The notes: generated by a model from the letters alone, not told the origin. A stretch of 64,000 nt of DNA from an uncultured Gammaproteobacteria bacterium (GCA_964512695.1 CAZEJU010000001.1:7803-71802); one strand, 5' to 3'. Positions 1 through 41,322 are shown, counted from the first letter of the stretch. A program made the numbers and translations.

Positions 1-135
1 ACAAAATATGCCTAATAGTGAAACCGCTACGAATAATAATAATTTTTTTCTCATCTATAGTCAGTATCACACGGTTTTCTAATAAAATCAAGCATGTTTC
101 TTGCCTACCTTTCAGAACTACTATACAATACAATT

Positions 136-21554: not shown

Positions 21555-23063
21555 ATGGCGCGTAAAATACCAGCAACAATGGTCTCACAACATCCTGATA
21601 ATGCGAGTAAACCGTACTGGCATACGGAAGAATTTATTAGCACCCAACATGAAACATTTGAATGTTTCTTATCTTTCTCTGAACTTGGTGTCTCTGAATA
21701 TAAATGGGATTGGGAAGGAAAGCTCGTAGATGAGTCTATTATGGAACGGCTTTTTAGCCAGTATTATGAATTTTTTAAGACAAATCCACTAGGTTATAGC
21801 AAATTTCTCACATTCCGTCTTCCAAACCCAAAAGTAGAAACAGAATTCCGTATAGGGCGCGCTTTCATGGGTATTCTCAGTGCGGATATGTTAGCTCGTC
21901 AGCTTGGATTCTACAGTCCCTCCTTATTTGAAGTAATCTTACCAATGACAGAGTCAGCGCAAGAGATGATAGAAATTCAAGAAGCTTTTCGCGAAATGAG
22001 TGGATTAAAACATAAATTATATCGCATGGCAGATAAATCTCTTCGTCATATCGAATTGATTCCCTTATTTGAAGATGTACATACGATAATTAACTCTGCA
22101 AATATTCTCGAACAGTATATTAAACTTCACAAAAAGAAATTTAAATTTTTACCTTCATATATAAGGCCGTACATCGCTCGTTCTGATCCAGCATTAAACG
22201 CAGGAATTGTGCCTACGGTACTTGCAGCAAAAATCGCTCTTTCAAGATACAAAGCATTTTCAGAAAAAACTGGCATTCCTTTATATCCCGTTATAGGCTC
22301 TGCATCCTTACCGTTTCGCGGAGGGCTTACACCAGTAACTGTCGAAGCGTTTGCTAACGAATATAAAGGAGTCCGAACAGCTTTGCTCCAGAGCGCATTC
22401 CGATATGATTATGATAAAAATGTCGTTAAACAGGCAGTGGAACAGCTTGAAAAATTACTTCCTTCAAATAGTGCAATTTCAATACCCCAAAAAGACGAAA
22501 AAGTTATGATCGAGCTTATTAACTTATTCGAGGGATATTATAAACCTACTATAGAACAATTAGCAGATAAGATAAACGCAGTAGCCACATCTCTACCTCG
22601 CAGAAGAGAACGAGTGCAGCATGTGGGTTTATTCGGGTACTCAAGGGGTGTCGGAAAAGTAAAACTACCACGAGCCATAGGGTTTACCGCCGCTATGTAC
22701 TCACTGGGTATTCCTCCAGAAATAATAGGCACGGGACGAGGCATAAAAGAAGCAAAGGAACGCGGACTTCTGCCAGTACTCGAAAAGTATTATGTTAATC
22801 TACAAGCTGATCTCACTCGAGCAGGGAAATACGTTAATAAACCAGCAATTAAAAAACTCGCGAAAACTGATACGACATGGAATGATGTTTTAACAGATAT
22901 AACGGAAATCGAAAAATTCCTTAAGATAGCACTTGAACCTGAGACAGAAGAAGAGAAACAACATAAAACCATTACGGATGATATTACGAAGAAACTTGCT
23001 GCTGAGGAATCTATAGCAAAACTCATAGAACAAGCAGCAGTACTCCGAAAAAGTTTAGGATAG
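21555..23063 (+). CDS. phosphoenolpyruvate carboxylase, archaeal type (PpcA-like, ~500 aa)
   Basis: N-terminal IPATMVSQHPDNASKPYWH and overall length match archaeal-type PEPC. Confidence 0.5.
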   Translation: MARKIPATMVSQHPDNASKPYWHTEEFISTQHETFECFLSFSELGVSEYKWDWEGKLVDESIMERLFSQYYEFFKTNPLGYSKFLTFRLPNPKVETEFRIGRAFMGILSADMLARQLGFYSPSLFEVILPMTESAQEMIEIQEAFREMSGLKHKLYRMADKSLRHIELIPLFEDVHTIINSANILEQYIKLHKKKFKFLPSYIRPYIARSDPALNAGIVPTVLAAKIALSRYKAFSEKTGIPLYPVIGSASLPFRGGLTPVTVEAFANEYKGVRTALLQSAFRYDYDKNVVKQAVEQLEKLLPSNSAISIPQKDEKVMIELINLFEGYYKPTIEQLADKINAVATSLPRRRERVQHVGLFGYSRGVGKVKLPRAIGFTAAMYSLGIPPEIIGTGRGIKEAKERGLLPVLEKYYVNLQADLTRAGKYVNKPAIKKLAKTDTTWNDVLTDITEIEKFLKIALEPETEEEKQHKTITDDITKKLAAEESIAKLIEQAAVLRKSLG

Positions 23064-23728: not shown

Positions 23729-23757
23729 TTGACAATAAGCAAAAAGTAGAGTATTAT
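23729..23757 (+). promoter_or_regulatory. sigma70-like promoter TTGACA-N17-TATTAT
   Basis: Read directly from the sequence; 17-nt spacer. Confidence 0.55.
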
Positions 23758-23770
23758 CGGATATAACGAT

Positions 23771-23821
23771 ATGCATTATATAAAAGTTGAAAACATGATG
23801 GCAATGATGATGACTTCCTAA
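23771..23821 (+). promoter_or_regulatory. Met-rich leader peptide ORF (MHYIKVENMMAMMMTS; five Met in the last eight codons)
   Basis: ATG CAT TAT ATA AAA GTT GAA AAC ATG ATG GCA ATG ATG ATG ACT TCC TAA begins ~7 nt after the predicted TSS. Its stop abuts an antiterminator arm, ggaggt at 23823-23828. Confidence 0.55.
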
Positions 23822-23852
23822 CGGAGGTGTATCACGTGCTGTTTGTGAACGA

Positions 23853-23875
23853 CCTCCTTACTAGGAGGTTTTTTT
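23853..23875 (+). terminator. intrinsic terminator CCTCCTtactAGGAGG + T7 (attenuator terminator; 3' arm doubles as SD)
   Basis: Perfect 6-bp GC-rich stem followed by seven T. The upstream ggaggt can alternatively pair with acctcc. Confidence 0.6.
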
Positions 23876-23886
23876 ATTGTAAAAAT

Positions 23887-24684
23887 ATGTTTGTGACCAT
23901 TATTAACGACTGTACAGATCATAACGTAATAGGAAGGCAACTAACCAGAGCAGCTGTCTTATTTTACGCGCCTGTTATTCCGGTTGGGGTTCACAACGAG
24001 TTAGAAGCTGCCGGAAACCTCATAGATGTTCTCGATGCTGCAGAAAAGGGAAAAGGAGTAATCATTCTGAATGTCGCACCCCGACATGGTAACGCGAAAA
24101 AGTGGCCGAATGGAACACCATTTGCGTACTTTAACGTCAATAATATACTTATTATAGCCACAATAGATGGCTACTCCTTGTCTCTTATAAAAAAACTCAG
24201 GATAATAGATTCCGTGAATCTCCTTGATATTCCTGATGTAGTTAACAGGATGCAAGAAGAACATGTCATTTCTTCAGAACTACGAGATCAAATCATTCAT
24301 ACGCAATTTCGAAGTTTCGAGTTCGCTCCCCGCGTAGCAAAGTGGCTGACCGAAAGAATAGAAATCCCCAGCACACCGTATGCTTTATCCCAAGTTCCTG
24401 ATGTACCAAAAGCTATATGGTATATCGATAATTTCGGAAACTGTAAAACCACACTCCTACCAGAAGATGTAAACTTCCAGGCAGGCAAAAAAGTTCATAC
24501 GGAATTAGGTGAGTTAGCTTGCTATAACAGATTAAAAGATGTCCCTGATGGAAAAACAGCTCTTATCATTGGTAGTTCAGGTTATAAAGATAAACGATTT
24601 ATCGAGTTAATAATCCAAGGTAAAAGCGCAGCACAGATATATGGTCTGCAAGTCGGATCATTAATCATAAATACTATTGGTTAA
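23887..24684 (+). CDS. SAM hydroxide adenosyltransferase family protein (DUF62; SalL/FlA fluorinase-chlorinase fold)
   Basis: N-terminal VTIINDCTD..; C-terminal IDNFGNCKTTL... closely parallels the fluorinase motif IDHPFGNVWTNI. Confidence 0.65.
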   Translation: MFVTIINDCTDHNVIGRQLTRAAVLFYAPVIPVGVHNELEAAGNLIDVLDAAEKGKGVIILNVAPRHGNAKKWPNGTPFAYFNVNNILIIATIDGYSLSLIKKLRIIDSVNLLDIPDVVNRMQEEHVISSELRDQIIHTQFRSFEFAPRVAKWLTERIEIPSTPYALSQVPDVPKAIWYIDNFGNCKTTLLPEDVNFQAGKKVHTELGELACYNRLKDVPDGKTALIIGSSGYKDKRFIELIIQGKSAAQIYGLQVGSLIINTIG

Positions 24685-24794
24685 ATTCGACACTACAGAA
24701 ATAACATTTATGGGAATTAAGATTACCATATTAAAAAATAACAGAAAAATACCTCAATGCCTGGACTAAAGGAATCTCGCATTACCGGCTATTA

Positions 24795-24823
24795 TTGACA
24801 AGCTCAGGCTGATAAGGTAAAGT
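24795..24823 (+). promoter_or_regulatory. sigma70-like promoter TTGACA-N17-TAAAGT
   Basis: Read directly from the sequence. Confidence 0.5.
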
Positions 24824-24828
24824 ATGGA

Positions 24829-25107
24829 AAGAATCAAGAGTGATGGGGAGACCCCAGTCTGATCTTCCTTTTCGCCTTAGTAGATTTCTACTTCGGCTTA
24901 AAGAGCGATCTTACCGGGGCGGGAGTTTTGGCTTCATGATCCATCCGGCAACCCTTCGGTAAGTTCAAACAATGCTTGAACAACGAGCAGGGTGCCAAAC
25001 CCAACCCAAGAGATGTGCTACCGAGTACATCTTCGTAAAGGAGGATTTGATCCTGAGACAATCGAAGGATAAACTATGTATTACCTCTCTTTACGAGAGG
25101 TTTTTTT
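24829..25107 (+). ncRNA. SAM-I (S-box) riboswitch with enlarged P3 and terminator expression platform
   Basis: Conserved S-box blocks AUCAAGAG (24833-40), CCGGCAACC (24945-53), GGUGCCAA (24981-88) and AGAGAUG. The P1 3' strand AAGAGA can alternatively pair with the UCUCUU 5' arm of the terminator 25084-25107. Confidence 0.6.
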
Positions 25108-25113
25108 ATTTAT

Positions 25114-26868
25114 ATGGCTAAAGAAGGTGAAATAAAAGGCACATATCAGTTTAGTATAGATGGCCCTCAGCTGACCAGTGACGATATACAGAGGAAGTTC
25201 CCTGGTGTCAAAAATAATGGTCATCTCGGAAAGACTGGTGTAGTACTACATGATACAGCAATTCCTATCGCAGCTATCCGACATCCTCGACTTATACCTA
25301 CGCGGTTAGATGGAATTATACCTGTGTTTGGTGGCCCCCAAACACACAGTAAAATAGAGCATATCCGTATCCGACCAGCTGGTGGCTCAGAAGCGAAAAG
25401 AATAGCAAAAGCAGTCCGTGGAACAACCCCAACACTCGGACCAGAAGCAGAAGCATTTGTACATAACAGAAGAACAGGCAGACTTGTACCTACATTTAAA
25501 GGAAAACAAATTGAAACACAAAAAGCACTGAGAGAAGATGCACTTGGACATACGGGATCGCTTGAAGAACACATCGTAGCATCTGCTAAATTTACAGTTT
25601 TTAGAGCTAATCAAGAGCGCAGACGAGGACGTATCGCAGTTGAAACAAGTGTTCCTATAACCTATGGTGAAGGTAAAGATGCTCGAGATAGTGAAGGTCT
25701 CGCAGGTAGTGAAAATCCATATATTGTGGCTATGACACATCTGTTCCCTGAAAATATGCTCCCTACAGAGAAGCTTGATCCACAAGTTGCAAGCGTTTTA
25801 AATCAATACGCTCTTCGCCATGGGTTTGCGACTATTTCTGATATGACCAGCGCTCTCGGTCTTAACCGCACCTGGCACATGGCTGCAAGCCATCTGAGTC
25901 TTGGTCTACCGCAGGAACAACAACCAGATGGGAAATATATTACTTCTACTGAGATCGCGATAGGAGTTATGAATGTATTTATGAGTGACCTTAATATTTC
26001 GCATATGTTTACTCATGGAACACCTATGCTAGGCGGACAATTAGTAGATGTTCCAGCACGAAATCGTCAATCAGAACATGTGGCCTCAAATCAACCGTTA
26101 CGGGATGTACGACTTGGTGCATTTAAGCATATGTTAGGCACTGCTTATCCTGGCCCGCTTATCGCGAATGAAGAAGATCTCTATGATCGCTGGAGAAAGA
26201 TTGTTATTCCAGGGAAAGCCGCGACTGTAGATCGAGCATCGGCAATTAGTATAGCACCAAATGGAGAAATCTATGCCTCAATGCATGCACGGGCTCGTCT
26301 TCGTGTGGGAGGTGATCCCACAAAACAAACTGTACGAGTCGAATCAGTAGGAGATAGCGCTACACCTTCACGCTACGACTTAATAGCGCGTGACGCGTAT
26401 CTAGTAATGTTATGGAACGGTGCTATGGAGGCAATGGCAAAAGGAAAAACCCCACAAGATTTCTGGGGGGGAAATTATCCAGCAATAACTGACTGGAAAA
26501 AGCAGCAGGAAGCGACATTAGGATTTTCTGTTAATGGACCAGCGAATAGGGAAGCACATGTGCTGATTGAACAAAACCTGGGGTTTTTACGTGATATGAA
26601 AGCTCTCCAACCTACATTAGGTACGTACATCGATTATGTAACAGCACGTATTCGTAATTTTAGTAGACCGACAAAAGCACACACACTCGATGAGTATACA
26701 ACAGATCCATCAGGTAGCATAAGCGAGGTAATTCGACGCATGAAAGAAACCGGATATAAAGATGATGAAATCGTGCGAGCTATTGACACACATCAAACTG
26801 CAGTATCACGAAGAGTTGTTCAAGTTCATGGAGATTTTAAAGCGCTTCTACAAGATGTACAAAAGTAA
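25114..26868 (+). CDS. hypothetical 584-aa protein under SAM-riboswitch control
   Basis: Long ORF with coding-like composition and no recognisable motif. Confidence 0.4.
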   Translation: MAKEGEIKGTYQFSIDGPQLTSDDIQRKFPGVKNNGHLGKTGVVLHDTAIPIAAIRHPRLIPTRLDGIIPVFGGPQTHSKIEHIRIRPAGGSEAKRIAKAVRGTTPTLGPEAEAFVHNRRTGRLVPTFKGKQIETQKALREDALGHTGSLEEHIVASAKFTVFRANQERRRGRIAVETSVPITYGEGKDARDSEGLAGSENPYIVAMTHLFPENMLPTEKLDPQVASVLNQYALRHGFATISDMTSALGLNRTWHMAASHLSLGLPQEQQPDGKYITSTEIAIGVMNVFMSDLNISHMFTHGTPMLGGQLVDVPARNRQSEHVASNQPLRDVRLGAFKHMLGTAYPGPLIANEEDLYDRWRKIVIPGKAATVDRASAISIAPNGEIYASMHARARLRVGGDPTKQTVRVESVGDSATPSRYDLIARDAYLVMLWNGAMEAMAKGKTPQDFWGGNYPAITDWKKQQEATLGFSVNGPANREAHVLIEQNLGFLRDMKALQPTLGTYIDYVTARIRNFSRPTKAHTLDEYTTDPSGSISEVIRRMKETGYKDDEIVRAIDTHQTAVSRRVVQVHGDFKALLQDVQK

Positions 26869-27021
26869 CATTTGACAATATATTTGTAAATATAATTGAC
26901 AATATTACATATCTTTCAGTTAGTAATTATGAGTGCTGCCAATGCCTCTCAATACTTTTCGCACTCACTCACATCCTATAGTTGAATTTCTTCTCATATC
27001 TTTGTTACAATTTACCCCTAT

Positions 27022-28503
27022 ATGTCCCGAATACACGAATTACCAAGTATCCATACACTCTCTTCTACTGATGCTCAAAGATATTGGGATAAGTTACATC
27101 CAATAAAAGTTGTATCTCATGAGAGACCCCTGCAATACGGACATCCAGTTGAAATTCCTCCTAAACTCGCAGGAACTATTGGCAGATCAGCAAATCTCAT
27201 GGAAGAAATTGCGATAGATAGCATTATGCAACAAGGGGCCACTACATGGCTTGGAAATAATGCGGCTTCTTTCGCAGGTGATAGTCTTAACATACAAGAA
27301 ATCAACCACCAGCTCGAAGGTAGGCTTCTTCAAGGCTATCGATTACCTATTAGTTACGATGGAATGATAACAGTCTTTCGTGGAAGACCACATTATACAG
27401 TAGTGGAAGCACAATCTCTAGTTGCTCATGGCCCATGGATTCGGTCTATGCTTCAAGCAGCAGATAAAGATCCAGATGATCCATCATCATGGCAAGGGAA
27501 AGAAAATCCTACCCTCGTAGTTCAACAAATGAAAGACAATTTCGCGAAGGGTGAAGTTATAACAGTATTAGATACCACTCCACTTTCAGGTCCATTTATT
27601 CATGAACAAGTGGGTCTAGCGAAAGCATTAGGAACATCGGGAAGCGTGCCTATTTCTGCGCTTGATATCCAATTTAATCCTGAAATAGGTTATTTTCATT
27701 ACGGTTATGCAGTTGATACTAGAGGCTACCCTATACCAAATGGAAACGGCTTTTTAAGAACATCCGACCGAATACCAATCCGGCATGTGTTAAGCCGTAT
27801 GACGCAACCTGATCTGGATCATTTATACAATCTGGTCCGCGGTAACCCCCAACAAAGTGAACTTATACTCAAGTTCTTACGAGATGAAAAGATTAATTGG
27901 ATCTGGCATCCAGCATGGCAGTCCCTCATCGATAAATCGAGATTACCATATATCTGTAAAAAACTGGAAGAAAGACAAGAAAACGTAACACGCAATCAAT
28001 TTGTTCCGATTTTCGTAGCCGGTGAAACTCCACCCCTAGGAACGTATGTGCGTAAACCCGTAAGCAGCGTCCAAGGTGAAGGAGTAACAATTGTGCAAGT
28101 TAATGGCGTACCTCAACAAGTCGAAGAAGGCACAGTATACCAAAAGTATTTTTACCCGTATCCGTTTTCCATTCCCTTAGACGCAGAAATAGCACGGCAA
28201 TTTCCTGTAACACCCCATGCTCCCAGAAATGTCGCGTCTGGCTTCCAGGAACATTTCGGTTGGGGACAAACCACAACGCCTGCTAGTCTAGAATTATGTT
28301 ATATGGTGCCACCTTGGTGTAAAGGAGAACTTACGGGATATTTTATAGGGAGAGTAGCACCCAGGTATACAGGACCAGATTCAAGAAACATAACCCAAAC
28401 AAACCTCTCAAAAGCGCAAGCTGCGATGTACGAATATATCCGAGATCAGGATCATTGGAAAACACCCTTCGGCTTTTCCCCTGTAACTCTTCAAAAGACT
28501 TAA
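27022..28503 (+). CDS. hypothetical 493-aa protein
   Basis: Long ORF preceded by a TTGACA promoter and a Ser-rich 18-codon uORF at 26929-26985. Confidence 0.4.
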   Translation: MSRIHELPSIHTLSSTDAQRYWDKLHPIKVVSHERPLQYGHPVEIPPKLAGTIGRSANLMEEIAIDSIMQQGATTWLGNNAASFAGDSLNIQEINHQLEGRLLQGYRLPISYDGMITVFRGRPHYTVVEAQSLVAHGPWIRSMLQAADKDPDDPSSWQGKENPTLVVQQMKDNFAKGEVITVLDTTPLSGPFIHEQVGLAKALGTSGSVPISALDIQFNPEIGYFHYGYAVDTRGYPIPNGNGFLRTSDRIPIRHVLSRMTQPDLDHLYNLVRGNPQQSELILKFLRDEKINWIWHPAWQSLIDKSRLPYICKKLEERQENVTRNQFVPIFVAGETPPLGTYVRKPVSSVQGEGVTIVQVNGVPQQVEEGTVYQKYFYPYPFSIPLDAEIARQFPVTPHAPRNVASGFQEHFGWGQTTTPASLELCYMVPPWCKGELTGYFIGRVAPRYTGPDSRNITQTNLSKAQAAMYEYIRDQDHWKTPFGFSPVTLQKT

Positions 28504-28528
28504 GCACACATACTCTTAAGTTTAAATA

Positions 28529-28557
28529 TTGACAATTTATAATTGATCTGGTAAGAT
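28529..28557 (+). promoter_or_regulatory. sigma70-like promoter TTGACA-N17-TAAGAT
   Basis: Read directly from the sequence. Confidence 0.55.
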
Positions 28558-28569
28558 TATAAGACAAAT

Positions 28570-28620
28570 ATGCAACATACGTTTAATTCTATTATTGTCG
28601 TCCTTCTCGTTACCCATTAA
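28570..28620 (+). promoter_or_regulatory. branched-chain-amino-acid-rich leader peptide ORF (MQHTFNSIIVVLLVTH)
   Basis: ATG CAA CAT ACG TTT AAT TCT ATT ATT GTC GTC CTT CTC GTT ACC CAT TAA. Seven consecutive Ile/Val/Leu codons; near-leaderless. Confidence 0.55.
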
Positions 28621-28650
28621 TTGGGCGGAGGACTCGTGTTAAAAAACGTA

Positions 28651-28675
28651 CCCGCTCAAAGAAGCGGGTTTTTTT
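28651..28675 (+). terminator. intrinsic terminator CCCGCTcaaagaAGCGGG + T7
   Basis: Followed by the tiny ORF ATG TTT TAA, then the AAGGAG SD and the main ATG at 28697. Confidence 0.6.
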
Positions 28676-28696
28676 ATGTTTTAAAAGGAGAAATAT

Positions 28697-30556
28697 ATGA
28701 GTTCACATAAAGAATATGCAGGGCAAGCTGCTCTCAAATCCTTAGCTGAAAGATATATTAGAAGGTATGGCTTAAAAGCTGATTTTAATCCCGAAGAGAC
28801 AGGTGGAGTAATTTTCGCTCAAGACGGTACACCACTAAGGCAAGTCCGTGCTCCTTTCTGGAGAGCAGAAAAAGGTGCAAAGGGAACAGGCAGAAAAGAT
28901 ATGCCTAGAGTTTACACTGCTACAAATCCTGACCCGGATAAACCTAACTCAGGATTAGAATTAGAATTCCAAGCTTTCCATGCCATGACAGGAGAAATGG
29001 AACCAGTCATGGATGCAGACCACCCAGTACATCAGGGGTTATTGGAACACAATCGAAAAGCAAAAAATGGACACACTGAAAATAATGGAAATGGACTTGG
29101 AAACGGAAATGGGGTTAATGGATATGTTTTTGTAGAAGACGGCGCTGACTGGGACCATGACTTCCCAACTGGACCTAAAGAAGTAGGATTTAGCCCAGAG
29201 CTAACACGTCATACTTTGGAGGAAAACTTTCCTCCGAATGTAGATTCCGGAACACGAAACAGAGAGACATTATATGGTATTAGCACAGTTGTACAATTAG
29301 CAGAAGCAAATAACACACTTATCTCTCCGTTCTCGACTATACCGCATCGAGATATTACACAAATTGATACGAATCAACATCCATATGTCCAACGCATAGC
29401 GTTCGAACACATGGGTCCCGAAAAAGTTAAACACTTTACAGGTACTTCACTGCAAATTCACGTAGAAATCAAGGATTTAGAGTCAGCTTTACACGCTGCA
29501 AACCGTTGGCAGCTAGTTACACCTATTATGTATGCGGGAACACTTTCAGCACCTTTTATCGCAGGAGAAATAACACCCGATTTACAAGAACGGTATGGTC
29601 AAGTTCCCGACGTGGTTGGCGATCCACTAAAAGAAAGCACATTTGATACTATGACACAAGGACCCCATGAATCATATAGATATTATGGTAGATTAATAGG
29701 ATCACCTTCTGGAGGTGCAATGAGACAGCCTCTACCTGAAACATCTGAAGAATTTTGGTCTGCGGCTAATAATCTTCTAAAATCAGGAGAAAGTCCTTCC
29801 GTGGGTAGAGTAGCAGGACACCATGCAGATTTTCGTATTCGCCCTGACTTGGGACCGTATGGCACAATCGAGTTAGCAGTATTAGATACTGCCGGTGCGC
29901 GCATTCCAAATATCGTAGCCATTCAAGAATTCTCCAGAGCTTTGGGTTGGAAGTTACAGAGACAAGCAGGTAATTGGGAACAAATTATGGAAGATCCTCG
30001 TTTTAAATCGATATTCGGGCAAGCACCTTCTAAGGAAACATTCGAGACTGTTCACTGGAATACTATAGAGGTAGCAAAACATGGAAATAAGGCAATGATT
30101 ACTGGTATGGACGGAGAACAGCATTCTATAGCAGAGTTATGGAGTAAGTTAGTGGAATATGTACAAGAACCTATTGAAGAAACCGGTTATACTGGTTTAC
30201 CGGAAGGTATTATCGAGGTATTAGATAAAGCTTATCAAGACCCATCAGAACTATTTGATGTTTATAAAGACGAAAAAGGAGTTACTTCTGTCAAAGGATT
30301 CTATGAAACCGGAGTCGGAACTATGAGCCAGTGGGCCAGACAACGTGCAGAAGAGTTGAAAGCAAGAGGCTTAGCAGAAAAAGAAGCCATTATCGATACT
30401 ACACTTAATGTAGGCAAAAGCTTTCATGAACATGTAAAGTCAATGACACCCAAAGATCTTAATACTTTATATGTAAGCGCTAACAAGGATGTGGATAAAT
30501 CACCCCAATACAGCGCTAATGGTCAGAATCCATCATACCAAACCACTGCGTCCTAA
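28697..30556 (+). CDS. GCS2/YbdK-like carboxylate-amine ligase family protein
   Basis: Motif order parallels E. coli YbdK: GLELEFQAF; SLQIHVEI (GQHVHVG-like); HHADFRIRPDLGPYGTIELAVLDT (HWDIRP..GTVEVRVMDT-like). Confidence 0.5.
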   Translation: MSSHKEYAGQAALKSLAERYIRRYGLKADFNPEETGGVIFAQDGTPLRQVRAPFWRAEKGAKGTGRKDMPRVYTATNPDPDKPNSGLELEFQAFHAMTGEMEPVMDADHPVHQGLLEHNRKAKNGHTENNGNGLGNGNGVNGYVFVEDGADWDHDFPTGPKEVGFSPELTRHTLEENFPPNVDSGTRNRETLYGISTVVQLAEANNTLISPFSTIPHRDITQIDTNQHPYVQRIAFEHMGPEKVKHFTGTSLQIHVEIKDLESALHAANRWQLVTPIMYAGTLSAPFIAGEITPDLQERYGQVPDVVGDPLKESTFDTMTQGPHESYRYYGRLIGSPSGGAMRQPLPETSEEFWSAANNLLKSGESPSVGRVAGHHADFRIRPDLGPYGTIELAVLDTAGARIPNIVAIQEFSRALGWKLQRQAGNWEQIMEDPRFKSIFGQAPSKETFETVHWNTIEVAKHGNKAMITGMDGEQHSIAELWSKLVEYVQEPIEETGYTGLPEGIIEVLDKAYQDPSELFDVYKDEKGVTSVKGFYETGVGTMSQWARQRAEELKARGLAEKEAIIDTTLNVGKSFHEHVKSMTPKDLNTLYVSANKDVDKSPQYSANGQNPSYQTTAS

Positions 30557-30590: not shown

Positions 30591-31676
30591 ATGATTCAAC
30601 AAGAAAGGCTTCTAAAAACATTCTTCGATCTTGTTTCAATCGATAGTCCTACAGGTGAAGAAGAACGCATTCGTAACGAACTCTCAAATCGTTTGAAAAA
30701 ACTTGGCGCTGAAACAGTGGAAAAAGATACCTATGGTAACCTCATAGCGAAATTCCATGGTGAAGGTGAACCGCTCATGATTAACTGCCATATGGACACT
30801 GTAGAGCCCGGTAGAGGCATAGTACCAATTATGAAAGGTGATAGAGTAGAAACCGACGGGAAGACAATTCTAGCGGGTGATGCAAAGGCAGGTTTAGCGA
30901 TTATCCTCGAAGCCTTAACTTCACTAAAAGAAGAAAATAAAAAACATGTACCTATCGAAATCGTCTTTACTGTAGAGGAGGAAACTGGACTTTATGGAGC
31001 TGTTAACCTCGACTATTCAAAAGTCTCCGCAAAAAAAGGATTTGTTTTTGATGGTTCAAAAGATCCTTGTACCTTAACCACATCAGCACCGGGATATTAT
31101 AGAGTCGATGTTACAATCATAGGAAGAGCGGCTCATGCGGGAGCCGAACCTGAAAAAGGTATTTCAGCTATTAAAATCGCTTCTGATATTATTACGAAGC
31201 TCGAGGTAGGCAGAATTGATGAAGAAACTACGGCAAACGTCGGTATTATAGAAGGCGGAAGCGCCCGGAATGCAGTACCAGAAAAAGCACATTTTAAGGC
31301 AGAAATTCGAAGTAGAAAGCTAGAAAAGCTTGAAAAACATGCAGGTCATTTCCAAGAAGTTTTTGAGGAAGCGATGAAGAAACATCCTGAAGCGAAAATA
31401 GAGATAGACATGCATTTAGAATTTAATCCATATATTTTCGATGAAAACCATCATGTTATTCAGCTTGCGAGTAAAGCGTTAAGCGAACTAGGACAAACAC
31501 CGAAACTTGCACCTTCGAATGGAGGATCCGATGTCAATATTTTTATTTCACACGATATAGAAACAGTGGCTGTAGGAATTGGCGATTATAATGCTCATAC
31601 AACCCGCGAATACGTCGTCATATCTGAAATAGTGTTAGGAGCTAGACTCTGCGAAAAACTCCTTGAGGCGAAGTAA
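30591..31676 (+). CDS. M20 family peptidase, peptidase T (PepT)-like
   Basis: LLKTFFDLVSIDSPTGEE; metal-binding HMDTV, GAVN/DGS region and E-rich catalytic region. Paralog of 39896. Confidence 0.7.
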   Translation: MIQQERLLKTFFDLVSIDSPTGEEERIRNELSNRLKKLGAETVEKDTYGNLIAKFHGEGEPLMINCHMDTVEPGRGIVPIMKGDRVETDGKTILAGDAKAGLAIILEALTSLKEENKKHVPIEIVFTVEEETGLYGAVNLDYSKVSAKKGFVFDGSKDPCTLTTSAPGYYRVDVTIIGRAAHAGAEPEKGISAIKIASDIITKLEVGRIDEETTANVGIIEGGSARNAVPEKAHFKAEIRSRKLEKLEKHAGHFQEVFEEAMKKHPEAKIEIDMHLEFNPYIFDENHHVIQLASKALSELGQTPKLAPSNGGSDVNIFISHDIETVAVGIGDYNAHTTREYVVISEIVLGARLCEKLLEAK

Positions 31677-31759
31677 ATTGGTATATTGCTAAACTGCTAA
31701 TTGTTACGTGAGAGTAACCATACAACAATACCCATATCAATAAATTTTCGCTACAAAAA

Positions 31760-31788
31760 TTGACACGTCATTAACCTCATGGTAGAAT
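31760..31788 (+). promoter_or_regulatory. sigma70 promoter TTGACA-N17-TAGAAT
   Basis: Read directly from the sequence. Confidence 0.6.
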
Positions 31789-31794
31789 TACTAT

Positions 31795-32108
31795 AACATA
31801 CGAATAACAGCGTTGATCCAGTATGGATGGGACTGGGGATTCTCCTTCATTAAAGTTACGCAAGGAGAGCGCTGGGTCTAATCAACCCCGGAGGCGAAAC
31901 CGTAAAAAGATCAGCAACATGTGTCATAGCTGCAGATAAGCACTGATTAAAAGCTGATTCTCGCTGATATAGAGCATGTCATGAATGAGAAGTCCTCCCA
32001 CGCCAAAGCTCCGGAGGATAAAACAAGGTGGCACCGTCCTTAAATAAACGTGGGACCCTTGTAAATAACTACAAAGTAATTTTGTGGTTGTTTACAAGGG
32101 TTTTTTTA
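31795..32108 (+). ncRNA. T-box riboswitch leader (antiterminator AAGG-UGGCACC-GUCC; terminator + T7)
   Basis: AAGGUGGCACCGUCC (~32026-32040) matches the T-box consensus AGGGUGGNACCGCG, including the 7-nt UGGNACC bulge. The 3' strand GGACCCUUG overlaps the 5' arm of the terminator 32057-32108. A candidate Stem I spans GUUGAUC...GAUCAGCAAC. Confidence 0.5.
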
Positions 32109-32120
32109 ATGGTAAAAACT

Positions 32121-33269
32121 ATGAAAGAAGGAGTTATTATACAAGTTGATCCGAGAATACCAGAGCCATATATAACATATATCCGGCAACGAAATGGGAA
32201 TGTCGGCAGAGATATAGCAGATCACCTTGGCCTACCCTATGTAGGAGACAGTCAGGGAGTACAACGTGCAGCTGATTATTATCCTGTACTTGCCAGAACT
32301 GTCACCAGAGAACATGCAAGAGTATTAGGTGCAGAAAATACAAGAGATTTCTATGGTCTTGCAGTTGAAGATTTAAATGTTGTGGGTAAATCTATACTCC
32401 ATCCTTCTATAAGCAGAAGACATCCTTTATTTCATAGAGAACAATTCGCACGAAAAGTCTTAGGTCAAACCCTTCCTGGTATAACCGGTTTCTCTAAAGA
32501 AGATTTATTAGCAGGGTATGAAAATGGTTACGCTGGATCACTGGATCATGCTTTAGATTACGAGCAGTATGGATTACGTGTTAAACTTCCAAATGAATCC
32601 GACGGCGTAGGACAATTTACTATACAAAGCAAGGATGATCTGGTTACTCTTCTAGAAGCTATTGAGGATAAAGATATCCACGAACAAGGACTGGTTCTGG
32701 AAGCTGATGTACAGAAACCTGAGACTATATCAGTCGGATTCGCGAGAATCGGTGATGAACAATTAAGTTTCATAGCCCAACAAAAAGATGCACGTGTGTT
32801 AGTAGATCATAAGGGCAAAACAATAGAGCAGAATAGATATGGTGGGGCATACGTCGTTGTGGCAAAAGGCCCTTTACAGTTACTATGCCAAGCCACGGAA
32901 GCAACTTCGCGTGAGAGATCTGCTGTAGAAAAAACACTGGCGTTTCATGAAGCCTATCAACGCATCTATGATCCTTTAGCTTCGAGATTAAGTTTCGATG
33001 TCATTTTCGGAGAAGGGAAAAACGGTCTCCCACTTGCAGGAATAAGTGACATTACTGGTAGGCTAGGTGGAACGTGTCCAGCACTCATGCAAGCTGCTGA
33101 AGAGTTCAGGAAAAACCCTTCTATTCAAATGGTAGGAACAGAAGTATCTCTTAATTATACTCCCCATGTACGATTTCCCTATGAAGATGAAGCTAAGGTG
33201 TATGTAGACCACCCAACACTCAGACTTACAGCAAGAGTAAACTCAAAACACAGAAGACTCGCAGCATAG
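32121..33269 (+). CDS. ATP-grasp-like protein
   Basis: GLRVKLPNESDGVGQFTIQSKDDL resembles the ATP-grasp central motif, but weakly. Start set at MKEGV downstream of the T-box terminator; the ORF-track start lies inside the leader. Confidence 0.35.
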   Translation: MKEGVIIQVDPRIPEPYITYIRQRNGNVGRDIADHLGLPYVGDSQGVQRAADYYPVLARTVTREHARVLGAENTRDFYGLAVEDLNVVGKSILHPSISRRHPLFHREQFARKVLGQTLPGITGFSKEDLLAGYENGYAGSLDHALDYEQYGLRVKLPNESDGVGQFTIQSKDDLVTLLEAIEDKDIHEQGLVLEADVQKPETISVGFARIGDEQLSFIAQQKDARVLVDHKGKTIEQNRYGGAYVVVAKGPLQLLCQATEATSRERSAVEKTLAFHEAYQRIYDPLASRLSFDVIFGEGKNGLPLAGISDITGRLGGTCPALMQAAEEFRKNPSIQMVGTEVSLNYTPHVRFPYEDEAKVYVDHPTLRLTARVNSKHRRLAA

Positions 33270-33278
33270 ACATGAATC

Positions 33279-33307
33279 TTGACATTACACATGGGCTATC
33301 CTATAAT
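33279..33307 (+). promoter_or_regulatory. consensus sigma70 promoter TTGACA-N17-TATAAT
   Basis: Read directly from the sequence. Confidence 0.65.
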
Positions 33308-33314
33308 CATTTAT

Positions 33315-33371
33315 ATGATACGACAAGCAGTAAATTTCTTTTTCTTTTTTACCCCACTCGCGGGGAGGTAA
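33315..33371 (+). promoter_or_regulatory. Phe-rich leader peptide ORF (MIRQAVNFFFFFTPLAGR; five consecutive Phe codons)
   Basis: ATG ATA CGA CAA GCA GTA AAT TTC TTT TTC TTT TTT ACC CCA CTC GCG GGG AGG TAA. Leaderless. Its 3' end runs through the hairpin CCCCACUCGCGGGG, whose GCGGGG can alternatively pair with the CCCCGC of the terminator. Confidence 0.6.
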
Positions 33372-33398
33372 TTTCGTGATCACACGAAATACTCTATA

Positions 33399-33422
33399 CC
33401 CCGCATAAGGCGGGGTTTTTTT
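33399..33422 (+). terminator. intrinsic terminator CCCCGCataagGCGGGG + T7
   Basis: Directly followed by the ATG of the tiny ORF MEEFYGND, then the main start at 33436. Confidence 0.6.
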
Positions 33423-33435
33423 ATGGAGGAATTCT

Positions 33436-35136
33436 ATGGCAATGACTGAACAAGACATACTAAAAGGTACAATGAACGGCCGAGTTGATTCAGGTTTAAA
33501 GGCAACTGATAACACAGCAGTACCTTTAGGTGAACAATCTCATGGCGGCATAGTCCGAAATACCGATGGACTATGGTGGCTACCTGCCTCACCACATCGC
33601 GGAAGGGGTTTCGAATGGCAAGACTCAAAGGATCCTAGATATAACGCAACACATTTAAGTGAAGTTGGCTACCACCCTGAACCTCTAGAACCACAGAGAA
33701 CCGTAGAAGTATTAGCTGAACATTTACAAGAAAAAGTTGAAGGAAGAATTCCGGAAACAGAAACCCATGGAGTTGAAGTTGAAGGGACTACCTATGATCG
33801 AGAAGGCAATCTCTTAGCAATTCCTGTCGATCAGAAAACAAATCCCGAATTATTAGCTTCTACACATGAAGAAGCCACAAAACTGGAAAACGGACAGTAC
33901 CCGAGAAAACCATTTGAAATAGCTCGAGCAGTAGCCAGTGCAACCCAGCGGGGTATCGCAATCGCTGAAAATCATAGCGGAATACTTGTCCTCACAGAAG
34001 TACCAGAAGGTGGAACATTTCATGATGCTGAAAACAGTACATTTCCATATATAGTACGTCAACAAGGAAGAATTCGAAGACACGCATTAGCACACCTTGA
34101 TGAGATACCTGAAGAAACATGGGCTCTCTATCGACGTTACGGCGTAGATATTCGAGAACTACTGGAATCTAATAGACCGCTCAATTGGCCTACTCATGGA
34201 TTGCATCATCATGCCGGTGCGCCACAAATAGAAGGATTAGTCGACCCGAGAGCCGCACTGGTTATGGGAAAAATGCGTCAAACACTTTTTGCAAAATTAC
34301 TGCAATACCCAGCATTTAATAGCAGTAGATTATATGAAAAAGAAACTGATCTCCGCGGAGTCCGATCTGTCGCAAAACACGCGCTTGCTACAACAGTTAA
34401 TAATGATTTACCTGATAGTGCTGAAGAGCTAATGTGGGATGTGCAACGGGCAATGAGAGAGGGAGAAATCGCTACGCCTTCACGATATCCTTATAAAGGC
34501 CAACACGATGTCGTTCGATTTAGGATGGATGGAAAACATAAAACTGTCGAGTCTATTAAAGATCCTATGACACCTGACCTATTAACAGCGCTTCATCTCG
34601 TGTTCGGCAATCAACTCCTGGATACCATCGGCCAGCAAGCTCTCGTACAAGTAGGTGGAGATGAAAGCAAAGTTATGGGTTATTTACAATCTATACATCC
34701 TGAGCTTTTTGCCACATTGCCTTCATTAGGTCCTGAGTCATCACATAGTGCAGATATGCAGTTTAATAAAGCAGGGTATCTAGGAACATTCCGCGGGAAA
34801 ACTTATGCTGAGCTTATAAGAGATGCACGTGCTGTCGTGGAAGGGGTAGGCAAACATTATACAGCACTTGAGACACAAGCTAAAATTGTAAATCACGTAC
34901 TAGGATACCAAACAGATATTCCTCATCCACAGACTGATCTAGCAACATTTATGGGAATAAAAAATGGAGTTTACCAACCAAATAGTATGAGAGCAGGAAT
35001 TCTAACGGATTATAAAACGGGTATTCCTACAAATGAACTGTTAGTTGTCCAGGCTGAAGCAACGAAATTACAAGCTCAAGCTTTAGCACAAGTGAGAGAT
35101 GATAAAGATCTTCTCGAAGTGTATGGATTACAGTAA
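33436..35136 (+). CDS. GCS2/YbdK-like carboxylate-amine ligase family paralog
   Basis: THGLHHHAG and VVRFRMDGKHKTVESI align with the GxHVHVG and HWDIRP..GTVEVR motifs of the family. Paralog of 28697, 41323 and 56332. Confidence 0.4.
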   Translation: MAMTEQDILKGTMNGRVDSGLKATDNTAVPLGEQSHGGIVRNTDGLWWLPASPHRGRGFEWQDSKDPRYNATHLSEVGYHPEPLEPQRTVEVLAEHLQEKVEGRIPETETHGVEVEGTTYDREGNLLAIPVDQKTNPELLASTHEEATKLENGQYPRKPFEIARAVASATQRGIAIAENHSGILVLTEVPEGGTFHDAENSTFPYIVRQQGRIRRHALAHLDEIPEETWALYRRYGVDIRELLESNRPLNWPTHGLHHHAGAPQIEGLVDPRAALVMGKMRQTLFAKLLQYPAFNSSRLYEKETDLRGVRSVAKHALATTVNNDLPDSAEELMWDVQRAMREGEIATPSRYPYKGQHDVVRFRMDGKHKTVESIKDPMTPDLLTALHLVFGNQLLDTIGQQALVQVGGDESKVMGYLQSIHPELFATLPSLGPESSHSADMQFNKAGYLGTFRGKTYAELIRDARAVVEGVGKHYTALETQAKIVNHVLGYQTDIPHPQTDLATFMGIKNGVYQPNSMRAGILTDYKTGIPTNELLVVQAEATKLQAQALAQVRDDKDLLEVYGLQ

Positions 35137-37163: not shown

Positions 37164-37192
37164 TTGACGAACTGTATGACTCATGGTATATT
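37164..37192 (+). promoter_or_regulatory. sigma70-like promoter TTGACG-N17-TATATT
   Basis: Read directly from the sequence. Confidence 0.55.
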
Positions 37193-37202
37193 GCTCAAAT
37201 AT

Positions 37203-37247
37203 ATGAAATCCACTTTTTTAGTTTGTTGTGTTACAACTCTGCTTTAA
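37203..37247 (+). promoter_or_regulatory. leader peptide ORF MKSTFLVCCVTTLL (tandem Cys-Cys, Thr-Thr, Leu-Leu)
   Basis: ATG AAA TCC ACT TTT TTA GTT TGT TGT GTT ACA ACT CTG CTT TAA. Its stop abuts GGGG of the antiterminator, which pairs with CCCC of the terminator. Confidence 0.45.
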
Positions 37248-37274
37248 GGGGTTGTAGTTATCGTGGAATATGCA

Positions 37275-37296
37275 CCCCGCCAAGCGGGGTTTTTTT
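37275..37296 (+). terminator. intrinsic terminator CCCCGCcaaGCGGGG + T7 directly abutting the start codon
   Basis: 6-bp GC stem, 3-nt loop, 7 T, then ATG at 37297. Confidence 0.6.
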
Positions 37297-38289
37297 ATGA
37301 GAAACTTATTAGAATTAGGAATTTTCGAAACATACGGAAATGGTGGAGGAGCAATTACCAAAGATAGAGTATCTCCTCCTATTTATCCAGTAGATGCTAA
37401 TTTAGGTGAATGGAGGATACTAGCAACTGATCATGAAAGAGAATTCCCGGGCGAGCATCTCGAACGTGCTTTTGAAGTGATAAAGCAATGGCAGGAAGTA
37501 TTTCCTCGGGAAGATACCTGGATTAATCGTGCGTATGGTATTCCGTCACCGATTATTAAACTCGATGCAACAATTACTAATAATGAATTACAGGTGTATG
37601 AAGTAGAAGATAGACCAGCAGGAATGGGTTATAGCGAATTAATAAATCCTGACTTACGAACAAATTTTGCTGATATTGTATCTACTTGGCCAGATTTCCG
37701 AGTCGTCGTTTCTCCTCAAAGATCTGGAAATGACGATCATTTATGGGCAAAGCCAGCAGAAGCAGATTGGCATGGTCTAGTTCTCGTCCGGGCAGAACCG
37801 TCTGAAGAAGAATTCCATGCATTACAGCGAAGATCCATAAGTACTCTGCTTACAGAAGGAGACAAATCGTATGGTGAAAAAATGGGTTTATGGAAAAGAG
37901 TTCATACAGCAGATGAGATAGATTTTTCACAAGGTTTTGTCGTCAAGCCCACCCAAGGAAGCAAAGGGAATGGTGTGTATGTATCTTTACCGAAACAATA
38001 CATGAAAGAACATGGGATCGACCCAGGTAGAAATGGCGTAGCTACTGCAGGGAAAATACGAGGTGTAATCGATACTGCAGCAGCAAATGGAGGAGTCTTC
38101 GTACAACAATATCATCCTCCTATGGAAACAGGTATCCCGACCCATCCCTGGGCAGTAAACCGGTTATTCTTCGGGTATGATATGCAAAATGGAGAATGGA
38201 GATATATAGGGGGAACATGGAATGCTCGAAATAATTTGAAAATTCATGGAGCTAGTGATACATTAACTGGCCCGTTAAAAACGGTATAA
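37297..38289 (+). CDS. ATP-grasp-like protein
   Basis: FVVKPTQGSKGNGVYVS and ELQVYEVEDRPAGMG motifs, though in an unusual order. Start placed after the terminator T-run. Confidence 0.35.
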   Translation: MRNLLELGIFETYGNGGGAITKDRVSPPIYPVDANLGEWRILATDHEREFPGEHLERAFEVIKQWQEVFPREDTWINRAYGIPSPIIKLDATITNNELQVYEVEDRPAGMGYSELINPDLRTNFADIVSTWPDFRVVVSPQRSGNDDHLWAKPAEADWHGLVLVRAEPSEEEFHALQRRSISTLLTEGDKSYGEKMGLWKRVHTADEIDFSQGFVVKPTQGSKGNGVYVSLPKQYMKEHGIDPGRNGVATAGKIRGVIDTAAANGGVFVQQYHPPMETGIPTHPWAVNRLFFGYDMQNGEWRYIGGTWNARNNLKIHGASDTLTGPLKTV

Positions 38290-38346: not shown

Positions 38347-38376
38347 TTGACGTCCAAATAGATATAACTCTATAAT
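38347..38376 (+). promoter_or_regulatory. sigma70-like promoter TTGACG-N18-TATAAT
   Basis: Read directly from the sequence. Confidence 0.55.
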
Positions 38377-38390
38377 ACAAAGTGTTCTAT

Positions 38391-38438
38391 ATGAATATCA
38401 TGAATAACAATGGAGCAGTAAAGAAGAACCTCTCGTAA
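38391..38438 (+). promoter_or_regulatory. Asn-rich leader peptide ORF (MNIMNNNGAVKKNLS; 5 Asn, including NNN)
   Basis: ATG AAT ATC ATG AAT AAC AAT GGA GCA GTA AAG AAG AAC CTC TCG TAA. The 3' end overlaps the hairpin CCUCUCguaaGAGGGG, whose 3' arm can pair with the CCCCUUAC of the terminator. Confidence 0.55.
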
Positions 38439-38469
38439 GAGGGGTCTTTCTGTTGTCTGCACAATAGTA

Positions 38470-38492
38470 CCCCTTACAGAAGGGGTTTTTTT
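38470..38492 (+). terminator. intrinsic terminator CCCCTTacagAAGGGG + T7
   Basis: Followed by the tiny ORF MDFLLNQ (38493-38516), then a ~100-nt spacer carrying a GGAGG SD before the 38616 start. Confidence 0.6.
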
Positions 38493-38615
38493 ATGGATTT
38501 TTTGCTGAACCAATAGTTCTACTTAGAAATCCAAATCCTCCAAAAAGCGCTCTTCGAGCCGCAGTTCAAATGAACTAAAGCGGAAAGGAAGCTTAGGAGG
38601 ACAAAGCTTTACATT

Positions 38616-41067: not shown

Positions 41068-41097
41068 TTGCTTAAGGGAGCGTTTATGCGATATACT
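41068..41097 (+). promoter_or_regulatory. sigma70-like promoter TTGCTT-N18-TATACT
   Basis: Read directly from the sequence. Confidence 0.45.
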
Positions 41098-41106
41098 TTC
41101 TTCAAC

Positions 41107-41154
41107 ATGAGTAAATCAGTTTTCGGAACTACCACTACAACAACCCTTTCCTAA
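41107..41154 (+). promoter_or_regulatory. Thr-rich leader peptide ORF (MSKSVFGTTTTTTLS; six consecutive Thr codons)
   Basis: ATG AGT AAA TCA GTT TTC GGA ACT ACC ACT ACA ACA ACC CTT TCC TAA. Its stop abuts GGGAGGUUG (41155-63), which pairs with CAACCUCC (41180-87), the 5' arm of the terminator. Confidence 0.6.
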
Positions 41155-41182
41155 GGGAGGTTGGCGTGGTATTATTTAACAA

Positions 41183-41204
41183 CCTCCTTAATAGGAGGTT
41201 TTTT
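41183..41204 (+). terminator. intrinsic terminator CCTCCTtaatAGGAGG + T6
   Basis: Perfect 6-bp stem plus a T-run. A ~118-nt spacer follows before the 41323 start. Confidence 0.55.
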
Positions 41205-41322
41205 ATTGGGGAGAACACGTATCCGTCAGCTGAGGGATACCACGATAGAATCCCATGGATTATTGCATGGAATCCTATCGCCCCGGTGTACGTCAGGACT
41301 GAAAGCTGACCACAAATAACAT

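Follow-up and report, generated by a model that had tools for sequence, protein, structure and literature searches.

The window analysed here is a stretch of DNA of 64,000 nucleotides, and its plus strand carries a compact leader followed by two genes. The leader begins with a sigma-70-type promoter (28529-28557), which consists of the -35 element TTGACA (28529-28534), a 17-nt spacer and the -10 element TAAGAT (28552-28557), with an extended -10 TG at 28549-28550. Downstream lies a leader-peptide ORF, MQHTFNSIIVVLLVTH, of 16 codons plus stop (28570-28620; ATG at 28570, TAA at 28618-28620). This ORF has no Shine-Dalgarno (SD) sequence, its AUG is found 12 nt past the -10, and it is probably leaderless or nearly so. 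Seven consecutive codons, ATT ATT GTC GTC CTT CTC GTT (28591-28611), specify Ile8, Ile9, Val10, Val11, Leu12, Leu13 and Val14 and are the presumed regulatory codons. Minimum free energy (MFE) folds place region 1 within the ORF (28600-28616), where it is made up of GUCCUUC (28600-28606) and CCCA (28613-28616). Region 2, UUGGGCGGAGGAC (28621-28633), includes GGGCGG at 28623-28628, just 3' of the ORF stop, and has as its partner either region 1 or, through UUGGGCGG, the segment CCGCUCAA. An intrinsic terminator, ACCCGCU-caaaga-AGCGGGU followed by U7, is predicted at 28650-28675 on the plus strand, with a stem formed by 28650-28656 and 28663-28669 and a 6-nt loop; its U-run could pair with an A-run upstream. 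The leader stop codon is 29 nt from the terminator hairpin. The gap between U7 and the start codon of the first gene is 21 nt, which leaves no room for a promoter, and transcription of that gene must therefore read through the hairpin. An SD sequence, AAGGAG (28685-28690), stands 6 nt ahead of its ATG at 28697. An earlier, sequence-only reading of this DNA had listed the ORF, the seven codons, the terminator, the T-run, the AAGGAG and the start at 28697, and all of these are present. That reading had also pointed to a two-codon ORF, AUG UUU UAA, at the end of the T-run. It is indeed there, directly after U7 (28676-28684), but is not conserved: it is absent at the nearest orthologous loci, L016, L002 and L007. 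We rejected it as a functional part, and it is probably incidental.

The first gene (28697-30556, plus strand) encodes a 619-aa protein that resembles, distantly, carboxylate-amine ligases of the YbdK/GCS2 fold. It has no Pfam match, and its match to TIGR02050 is weak (26.2 bits, E 4.5e-6, below the curated cut-off of 176.4). Just 12 homologues were found in a collection of 5.8 billion proteins, the best with 48% identity, and 6 of the 12 carry PF04107 (GCS2). An AF2 model built from the homologue alignment (pLDDT 85) has YbdK as its best PDB match (1r8g, E 1e-12, TM 0.80 on the target); next come glutamate-cysteine ligases, Dop/PafA and glutamine synthetases. Searching the PDB by sequence, with the 619-aa protein or with the profiles of the ligase family and of the 566-aa family described below returned nothing useful; only the fold comparison worked. 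Judged by the model, the protein is a member of the YbdK/GCS superfamily and not a YbdK orthologue. The second gene (30591-31676, plus strand) encodes a 361-aa PepT-like M20 metallopeptidase, with PF01546, PF07687 and a TIGR01883 score of 297.2 bits, above the cut-off of 274.25. The fold match and TIGR01883 thus confirm the original calls of a YbdK-like ligase and a PepT-like peptidase. The remark that neither is an enzyme of branched-chain amino acid biosynthesis is also correct.

Thermodynamic prediction gives three mutually exclusive pairings in the leader RNA, 1:2, 2:3 and 3:4. In the free RNA, the MFE structure contains the 1:2 hairpin, in which GUCCUUC and CCCA (28600-28616) pair with UGGG and GGAGGAC (28622-28633), together with the terminator. 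We then simulated a ribosome footprint by keeping all nucleotides it would cover, as far as A-site +10, +12 or +14, unpaired. The terminator is present in the MFE structure when the RNA is free or when the ribosome has reached the final codons or the stop; it gives way to the antiterminator only with the A-site on Ile9-Val11. In that antiterminator UUGGGCGG (28621-28628) pairs with CCGCUCAA (28652-28659), which covers the 5' arm and loop of the terminator, and constrained folding thus bears out the suggestion that GGGCGG is an antiterminator. The antitermination range of the window leader is narrow in equilibrium folding, about 2 codons, and in 2 of the 10 orthologous leaders folded the antiterminator is never the MFE structure. 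The two energies are nearly equal, about -12 kcal/mol for the antiterminator duplex and about -13 kcal/mol for the terminator. During transcription the antiterminator is made earlier and should prevail at more of the stall positions; the folding here is an equilibrium calculation, and a kinetic model might give another result.

We gathered loci with relatives of the ligase from Logan assemblies, GTDB species genomes and JGI metagenomes, and scanned them for ATG-started ORFs of 7-35 codons (7-40 in metagenome loci) located no more than 150 nt ahead of a hairpin with a run of five or more T behind it. Ligase orthologues with 26-48% protein identity to the window ligase are found at L002, L005-L010, L016-L018, L022 and L023, and the named hosts among them are Woesebacteria, Roizmanbacteria and Daviesbacteria. 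Looking for the small ORF at such loci had been proposed as a check. An Ile/Leu/Val-rich short ORF and a terminator are found directly upstream in every locus with readable upstream DNA. The leaders ahead of the ligase orthologues include MTSKASQNIFVLLITP (L016), MQSKVYSNIFVLLFIAR (L007), MKIRSLSVLFVLLLTPAKAE (L006), one ending in ALLTVVITILLLGA (L005), MFKNLVSQIIKVVIITPRQGGLFR (L010), MRNMCLVIVSILLFKEGV (L017), MRNMELIIVSVLLFKGEV (L018), MKINSLIVVSFFLLIEG (L022) and MNKNFSLLVMFVLIIGLI (L023). At L002 the leader, MKQIDQKFILILLITR, precedes a gene for a 486-aa protein, which the ligase gene overlaps, and its terminator is almost identical to that of the window. L008 and L009 have two attenuators each, in tandem. 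In all, there are 15 distinct Ile/Leu/Val-rich leader peptides. At least five Ile, Leu or Val residues fall within some 7-residue span in 15/15 of them, versus 9.1% of 681 short ORFs of the window; at least six do so in 10/15, versus 1.3%. In each orthologous leader the proposed frame is the only open one and the richest in these residues; the two alternatives are closed or contain few of them. The sequence-only reading had named loss of the codon enrichment in orthologues as the outcome that would speak against it; the outcome is the opposite, since the bias is retained in these 15 leaders.

The L016 leader aligns with the window leader at the nucleotide level across regions 1 and 2 (GTCCTYCTYRTTACCC..TAA..GGGCGGAGGACTYGTGTTAA), and region 1 is kept. 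Its terminator differs from that of the window and has a 5' arm, CCGCCC, that is a perfect complement of GGGCGG. The terminator co-varies with the segment around the ORF stop: across 23 leaders, this segment pairs with the 5' arm of its own terminator at a mean of -12.98 kcal/mol, versus -10.37 kcal/mol with the arms of other leaders, and the matched value was reached in 0/100,000 permutations. With the first 10 ligase leaders only, 1,162/100,000 permutations reached it. The matched duplex of the window leader ranks 6th of 23, because GC-rich arms are common to many terminators.

The leader has siblings in the window. Nearly all strong intrinsic terminators on the plus strand lie just upstream of a gene. 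The same strand has 10 promoters of the form TTGAC[AG]-16..18-TAnnnT, and 8 of these stand just upstream of a leader, about 100-500 nt before a terminator, with short ORFs that contain runs of a single amino acid in between. A Met leader, MHYIKVENMMAMMMTS (start 23771; MMAMMM), precedes a gene resembling SAM hydroxide adenosyltransferase, a family that converts SAM into adenosine and methionine. A Phe leader, MIRQAVNFFFFFTPLAGR (start 33315), precedes the gene for a 566-aa protein, and an Asn leader, MNIMNNNGAVKKNLS (start 38391), precedes an ATP-grasp protein and a second M20 peptidase. The leader at 41107, MSKSVFGTTTTTTLS, has six Thr and stands before genes for a 594-aa protein, ThrRS and IF3. 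A weaker case, MKSTFLVCCVTTLL (start 37203), precedes the gene for a 330-aa protein. In footprint-constrained folding, the position at which the terminator is lost coincides with the amino acid run in the sibling leaders; in the Thr leader it is exactly Thr8-Thr13. Together with a Tyr T-box, the siblings thus comprise Met, Phe, Thr and Asn leaders, and possibly a Cys leader. The T-box candidate (55853-56072; 58 bits, E 4e-12, sub-threshold) lies before the genes for a 459-aa GCS2 protein and TyrRS, and its alignment reads UAC in the specifier region; on this sequence evidence it is convincing. Searches for leaders before the window's pheS (46085-46182) and thrS (43107-43198) found none, and two long leaders, 24780-25120 and 31750-32130, gave no T-box or other meaningful Rfam match.

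Similar leaders occur in relatives. In the nearest relative genome, L012, whose ThrRS is 89% identical to that of the window, MKKLFKINTTTFF, with three Thr, lies directly before thrS. L013 has MQKLIKQVSYFYSFYFTTLSGVI, with YFYSFYF, before an operon for DAHP synthase, chorismate mutase and prephenate enzymes. L014 has MNRQQTFFWFYFTPSLGGSLVV, with FFWFYF, before pheST, and a further leader, MTKTFSTMMMTSS. Phe-rich leaders before members of the 566-aa family are also found in L007, L011 and L016; Phe runs stand ahead of this family in four genomes. The way in which the sensory ORFs begin is shared as well. A -10 element with at least 5/6 matches ends 6-14 nt before the AUG in 20/28 leaders, versus 8.9% of all ATGs of the window, and an SD-like motif is absent in 27/28, while the structural genes have strong SDs. 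Given this spacing and the missing SDs, the sensory ORFs are probably translated from leaderless or near-leaderless transcripts.

We also compared the window with Rfam. At gathering thresholds, the whole window gives 8 tRNAs only. As a member of a known riboswitch or leader family the element was rejected: at E values up to 10, the leader gives only weak matches driven by the terminator. Leu_leader (RF00512), Thr_leader (RF00506), Phe_leader (RF01859) and Trp_leader (RF00513) score 12.8-17.2 bits versus thresholds of 41-55. The T-box model (RF00230) has no match in 28400-28800 at E values up to 10. The element would work like the Rfam leader families but is outside those sequence families.

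These observations suggest how the leader may act. Transcription would start at about 28564, a few nucleotides after the -10, which puts the AUG of the SD-less 16-codon ORF almost at the 5' end, and translation would begin by leaderless initiation. A ribosome that reaches the stop at 28618 would cover region 2 (28621-28633), the terminator (28650-28669 and U7) would form, and transcription would stop before the ligase gene. If the leader is not translated, region 1 (28600-28616) would pair with region 2, and the terminator would again form. When charged tRNA is scarce, a ribosome stalled on 28591-28611 would hold region 1 and leave region 2 free; UUGGGCGG could then pair with CCGCUCAA and block the terminator. 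RNA polymerase would go on to transcribe the operon, which begins with AAGGAG and encodes both the GCS2-fold ligase-like protein and the PepT-like M20 peptidase. We found together a cluster of cognate codons, a predicted intrinsic terminator between ORF and gene and, by thermodynamic prediction, an antiterminator and a 1:2 pairing. The original suggestion of an Ile/Val/Leu leader-peptide attenuator is strongly supported, all by computation, through the anatomy of the element, its folding, its conservation in orthologues, the co-variation and the siblings. We put the probability that it is a ribosome-mediated transcription attenuator sensing charged Ile, Val and Leu tRNA at about 85%. The strong evidence is the place of the short ORF between promoter and terminator, the conservation in orthologues and the sibling elements in the window. 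Two features of the targets speak against an attenuator: no connection of the regulated enzymes with branched-chain amino acids is known, and a ligase that consumes an amino acid is an odd gene to induce when that amino acid is short.

A simpler explanation is that the hairpin and U-run terminate, perhaps as a partial internal terminator, the genes upstream (25114-28503), and that the promoter and the ORF arose by chance. Runs of Ile, Leu and Val codons are the easiest to obtain by chance in AT-rich DNA, a point against an attenuator. The 64-kb window has 621 short ORFs of 10-30 codons that begin with ATG, and a run of at least seven occurs in 2 of them, the leader and one other; taken alone, this rarity is weak evidence. 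Promoter-like sites show no excess either (13 versus 14.0 expected from shuffled sequence), and the upstream gene, for a 493-aa protein, ends at 28503 without another terminator. Chance does not account for the recurrence of the unit of Ile/Leu/Val-rich ORF and terminator before ligase orthologues that have different upstream neighbours, for the co-variation of the ORF-stop region with the terminator arm, or for the strong TTGAC[AG] promoters on the plus strand, 8/10 of which precede such leaders. Moreover, the two roles are compatible, since an attenuator can also end read-through transcripts from upstream. We regard termination of the upstream genes with a chance promoter and ORF as extremely unlikely.

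Another conceivable role for the short ORF is to encode a hydrophobic micropeptide with a function of its own, such as a RiPP-like precursor for the ligase and peptidase to modify or process, while the hairpin would adjust how much precursor is made relative to the enzymes. With its small peptide gene and hairpin next to genes for an ATP-dependent ligase and a peptidase, the locus does resemble, as a matter of general knowledge, clusters for peptide natural products, and a VLLITP-like core is seen in several leaders. That core, however, coincides with the stretch of RNA that forms the pairing with region 2. The peptides have 16-32 residues and no SD, and their composition is conserved while their sequence is not. 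A precursor is silent on why the amino acid runs of the siblings fit their genes (ThrRS, PheRS, the aromatic operon and the SAM-cleaving enzyme). We consider a micropeptide very improbable. The third explanation is an RNA switch independent of translation (a riboswitch, something like a T-box, or a site recognised by an RNA-binding protein), in which the ORF is a by-product. In its favor, a T-box is in use in this genome (55853-56072), the same cluster has two long structured leaders of no assigned type, and region 1 is kept as RNA. Against it, no Rfam family reaches its threshold (the best matches, 12-22 bits, come from the terminator alone), and the leader, at about 110 nt, is too short for a T-box. 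The nucleotides vary among orthologues, yet an open frame rich in Ile, Leu and Val is retained from an AUG after the -10. We consider such a switch to have a similarly slight chance of being correct.

The leaders in the window may tell what their enzymes do. Profile comparison with hhalign relates the family of the 566-aa protein, which has the Phe leader, to that of the 584- and 594-aa proteins (probability 97.7%, E 1.7e-12) and to the ligase family (probability 92%, E 5.7e-7); comparing the 584/594 family directly with that of the ligase gave no significant match. Read from the three alignments, the motifs G-x-E-x-E, H-x-H/E-type, R-x-R and E are common to all and collinear. A homologue search with the 566-aa protein returned itself only, and the AF2 model of three window paralogues had a pLDDT of 31.5 and was discarded; the claim of paralogy rests on hhalign and the collinear motifs, which suggest that the 566-, 584/594-aa and ligase families are homologous. 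GCS2-fold ligase-like proteins would then stand behind different sensors: the 619-aa protein behind the Ile/Val/Leu leader, the putative 566-aa member behind the Phe leader, the putative 594-aa member, which would share its transcript with ThrRS, behind the Thr leader, the 459-aa GCS2 protein, which would do so with TyrRS, behind the Tyr T-box, and the putative 584-aa member behind a long leader of no assigned type. The pair of ATP-grasp protein and M20 peptidase follows the Asn leader, and a DUF3182 ATP-grasp protein follows another long leader of no assigned type. Tentatively, and with somewhat less than even confidence, we propose that at least five divergent GCS2-fold paralogues lie behind different sensors, that the leaders reveal the specificity of the enzymes, and that together these form a starvation-induced system for amino acid salvage or release.

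Induction upon shortage of charged Ile, Val or Leu tRNA would be sensible for a peptidase that frees amino acids and less so for a ligase that consumes them. Dop is a GCS-fold enzyme that cleaves amide bonds rather than making them, and by analogy the GCS2-fold enzymes of the window might work in the amide-cleaving direction. Release of amino acids from gamma-glutamyl or acyl conjugates is conceivable on the same analogy. Our guess is that the operon raises the pool of free branched-chain amino acids, for example from peptides or conjugates. CPR and other bacteria with reduced genomes are often unable to make their own amino acids, and this host probably cannot make the branched-chain ones.

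The named relatives of the window ThrRS are all Patescibacteria/CPR, and so are most of the genomes that have relatives of the ligase. The window proteins we tested are all singletons at 90% identity. Judged from these sequence relationships, the window genome is that of a member of the Patescibacteria. To our knowledge, almost nothing is known about gene regulation in Patescibacteria/CPR. Full-text searches, with incomplete coverage, found no published description of a leader peptide or attenuator in the candidate phyla radiation, Patescibacteria or Microgenomates, and none of a T-box in CPR. The mechanism itself, a leader-peptide transcription attenuator, is known; what is new is the host group and the targets, within a dense set of sensors for several amino acids. 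Our analysis would place leader-peptide attenuation with leaderless sensory ORFs in Patescibacteria/CPR. It would also make the leaders built-in labels of the amino acid served by uncharacterised ligase-fold enzymes and M20 peptidases, and turn several families of "hypothetical protein" into testable biochemistry. This offers a route to learning how bacteria with reduced genomes, such as CPR, sense a shortage of single amino acids.

The leader peptides of ilvGMEDA, ilvBN and leu in Escherichia coli and Salmonella are the classical attenuators. The window leader shares with them the run of Ile/Val/Leu codons, the mutually exclusive 1:2, 2:3 and 3:4 pairings and the terminator before the first gene, and with ilvGMEDA the joint sensing of several branched-chain amino acids that we propose. 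It has no detectable homology to Leu_leader (RF00512; 12.8-15.7 bits versus a gathering score of 50). Unlike the leaders of E. coli and Salmonella, its ORF lacks an SD and begins at the very 5' end of the transcript or close to it. The genes behind it encode a GCS2-fold ligase-like protein and an M20 peptidase rather than biosynthetic enzymes, and its host belongs to Patescibacteria/CPR. The pheST leader of E. coli (pheM) encodes a peptide with Phe codons and has a terminator ahead of the synthetase operon, much like MNRQQTFFWFYFTPSLGGSLVV before pheST in L014; this likeness bears on the siblings and not on the Ile/Val/Leu leader. Leader-peptide attenuators of the Ile/Leu kind are also reported for ilvBNC of Corynebacterium glutamicum (PMC11857589) and for ilv-leu of Staphylococcus aureus (PMC5794164). 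Classical attenuators have been predicted before ilvB, trpS and leuS in Actinobacteria (PMC1262725). The Gram-positive cases likewise have a leader peptide and a terminator outside Proteobacteria, and include aminoacyl-tRNA synthetase targets, which compare with the Thr leader and ThrRS operon of the window. They control biosynthesis or synthetase genes in bacteria that make their own amino acids, whereas the target here is an uncharacterised ligase/peptidase pair. The polycysteine short ORFs of the mycobacterial "Cys ribulon" (bioRxiv 10.1101/834739) are, like those of our system, leaderless and sensory, and in their case ribosomes that pause on a single kind of codon coordinate several independent loci. 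The window leader differs in its canonical intrinsic terminator, and the region around it mixes leaders for several amino acids.

Four proteins encoded in the window, of 584, 594, 566 and 619 amino acids, appear from their sequences to be divergent paralogues. Their genes lie at 25114-26868 (584 aa), 41323-43107 (594 aa), 33436-35136 (566 aa) and 28697-30556 (619 aa), and the set also includes a 459-aa GCS2 gene at 56332-57711. The 584- and 594-aa proteins are 26% identical by BLASTP. Using hhalign, we matched the 566-aa protein to the 584/594-aa family (E 1.7e-12) and to the 619-aa family (E 5.7e-7), and all four proteins have the motifs G-x-E-x-E and R-x-R. Each divergent ligase-like paralogue is predicted to have a separate, differing amino-acid sensor ahead of it.

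The 566-aa gene, whose product has no Pfam match, follows a leaderless Phe-type leader, MIRQAVNFFFFFTPLAGR (33279-33435; ORF 33315-33371; terminator 33398-33416). Members of this family are also preceded by a Phe leader in three loci from related genomes (L007, L011 and L016). Aromatic leaders were found before a DAHP-synthase/chorismate mutase/prephenate dehydrogenase-dehydratase/aminotransferase operon (MQKLIKQVSYFYSFYFTTLSGVI, 10080-10227 of the related Patescibacteria locus L013) and before pheST (MNRQQTFFWFYFTPSLGGSLVV, 9255-9400 of another, L014). Given the aromatic operons behind such leaders, an aromatic amino-acid pathway is therefore present in some of these related Patescibacteria genomes. 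In two further related loci, L008 (5718-5955) and L009 (5671-5982), a tandem pair of Ile/Leu/Val leader-peptide attenuators precedes the ligase orthologue. Clear homology links the first peptide of L008, MVHKSLSVLFIQLITPKRAE, to the peptide of L006, MKIRSLSVLFVLLLTPAKAE.

A Thr-type leader, MSKSVFGTTTTTTLS (41092-41322; ORF 41107-41154; terminator 41181-41200), precedes the 594-aa gene, to which no function is assigned, followed by ThrRS (43198-44937) and IF3 (44921-45502). When a ribosome footprint was moved along the leader ORF in folding simulations, the terminator was lost precisely at Thr8-Thr13. About 120 nt of structured RNA separate this terminator from the 594-aa gene. In the nearest relative genome (L012), thrS is directly preceded by MKKLFKINTTTFF.

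A Met-type leader, MHYIKVENMMAMMMTS (23729-23886; ORF 23771-23821), has the promoter TTGACA-17-TATTAT and a terminator (23851-23870), and MTKTFSTMMMTSS in L014 resembles it. The gene behind it (23887-24684) encodes a SAM hydroxide adenosyltransferase-like protein (PF20257); such an enzyme would free methionine from SAM. Elsewhere, 21555-23063 encodes an archaeal-type phosphoenolpyruvate carboxylase in this bacterial genome (TIGR02751, E 8.5e-147). An Asn-rich leader, MNIMNNNGAVKKNLS (38347-38615; ORF 38391-38438; terminator 38469-38486), precedes an ATP-grasp gene (38616-39899) and a second M20 peptidase (39896-40966), 37% identical to that of the Ile/Val/Leu-leader operon. A weaker candidate, MKSTFLVCCVTTLL (37164-37296; ORF 37203-37247; terminator 37274-37290), contains two Cys codons and has the same promoter/terminator build as the other window leaders; the 330-aa product of the gene starting at 37297 has no family match. 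Several terminators have an AUG directly after the U-run (UUUUUUUAUG; 28669-28678, 33416-33425, 37290-37299 and 38486-38495). One is a real gene start (37297), and the others open a 2-7 codon mini-ORF or overlap the SD. This placement is possibly due to chance.

Two long leaders, 24795-25113 (about 290 nt, before the 584-aa gene) and 31760-32108 (about 320 nt, before a DUF3182 ATP-grasp gene), each have a strong promoter and a terminator immediately before the gene. We found no convincing leader peptide and no Rfam match in either. By eye, the second contains a T-box-like antiterminator, AAGG-UGGCACC-GUCC...GGAC-CCUU (about 32026-32062), and its terminator stem is 20 bp. A full-text literature search, incomplete in coverage, returned no published description of T-boxes in CPR, the Patescibacteria group. 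The leader at 55811-56331 matches the T-box model at 55853-56072 (58.2 bits, E 3.9e-12, under the Rfam gathering score), with UAC (Tyr) in the specifier region. It also has two hairpins, one terminator-like (56076-94) and the other, with a U-run, immediately before the 459-aa GCS2-family gene, which is followed by TyrRS (57724-58920). Near 56120 the leader carries a GGUGGUACC motif.
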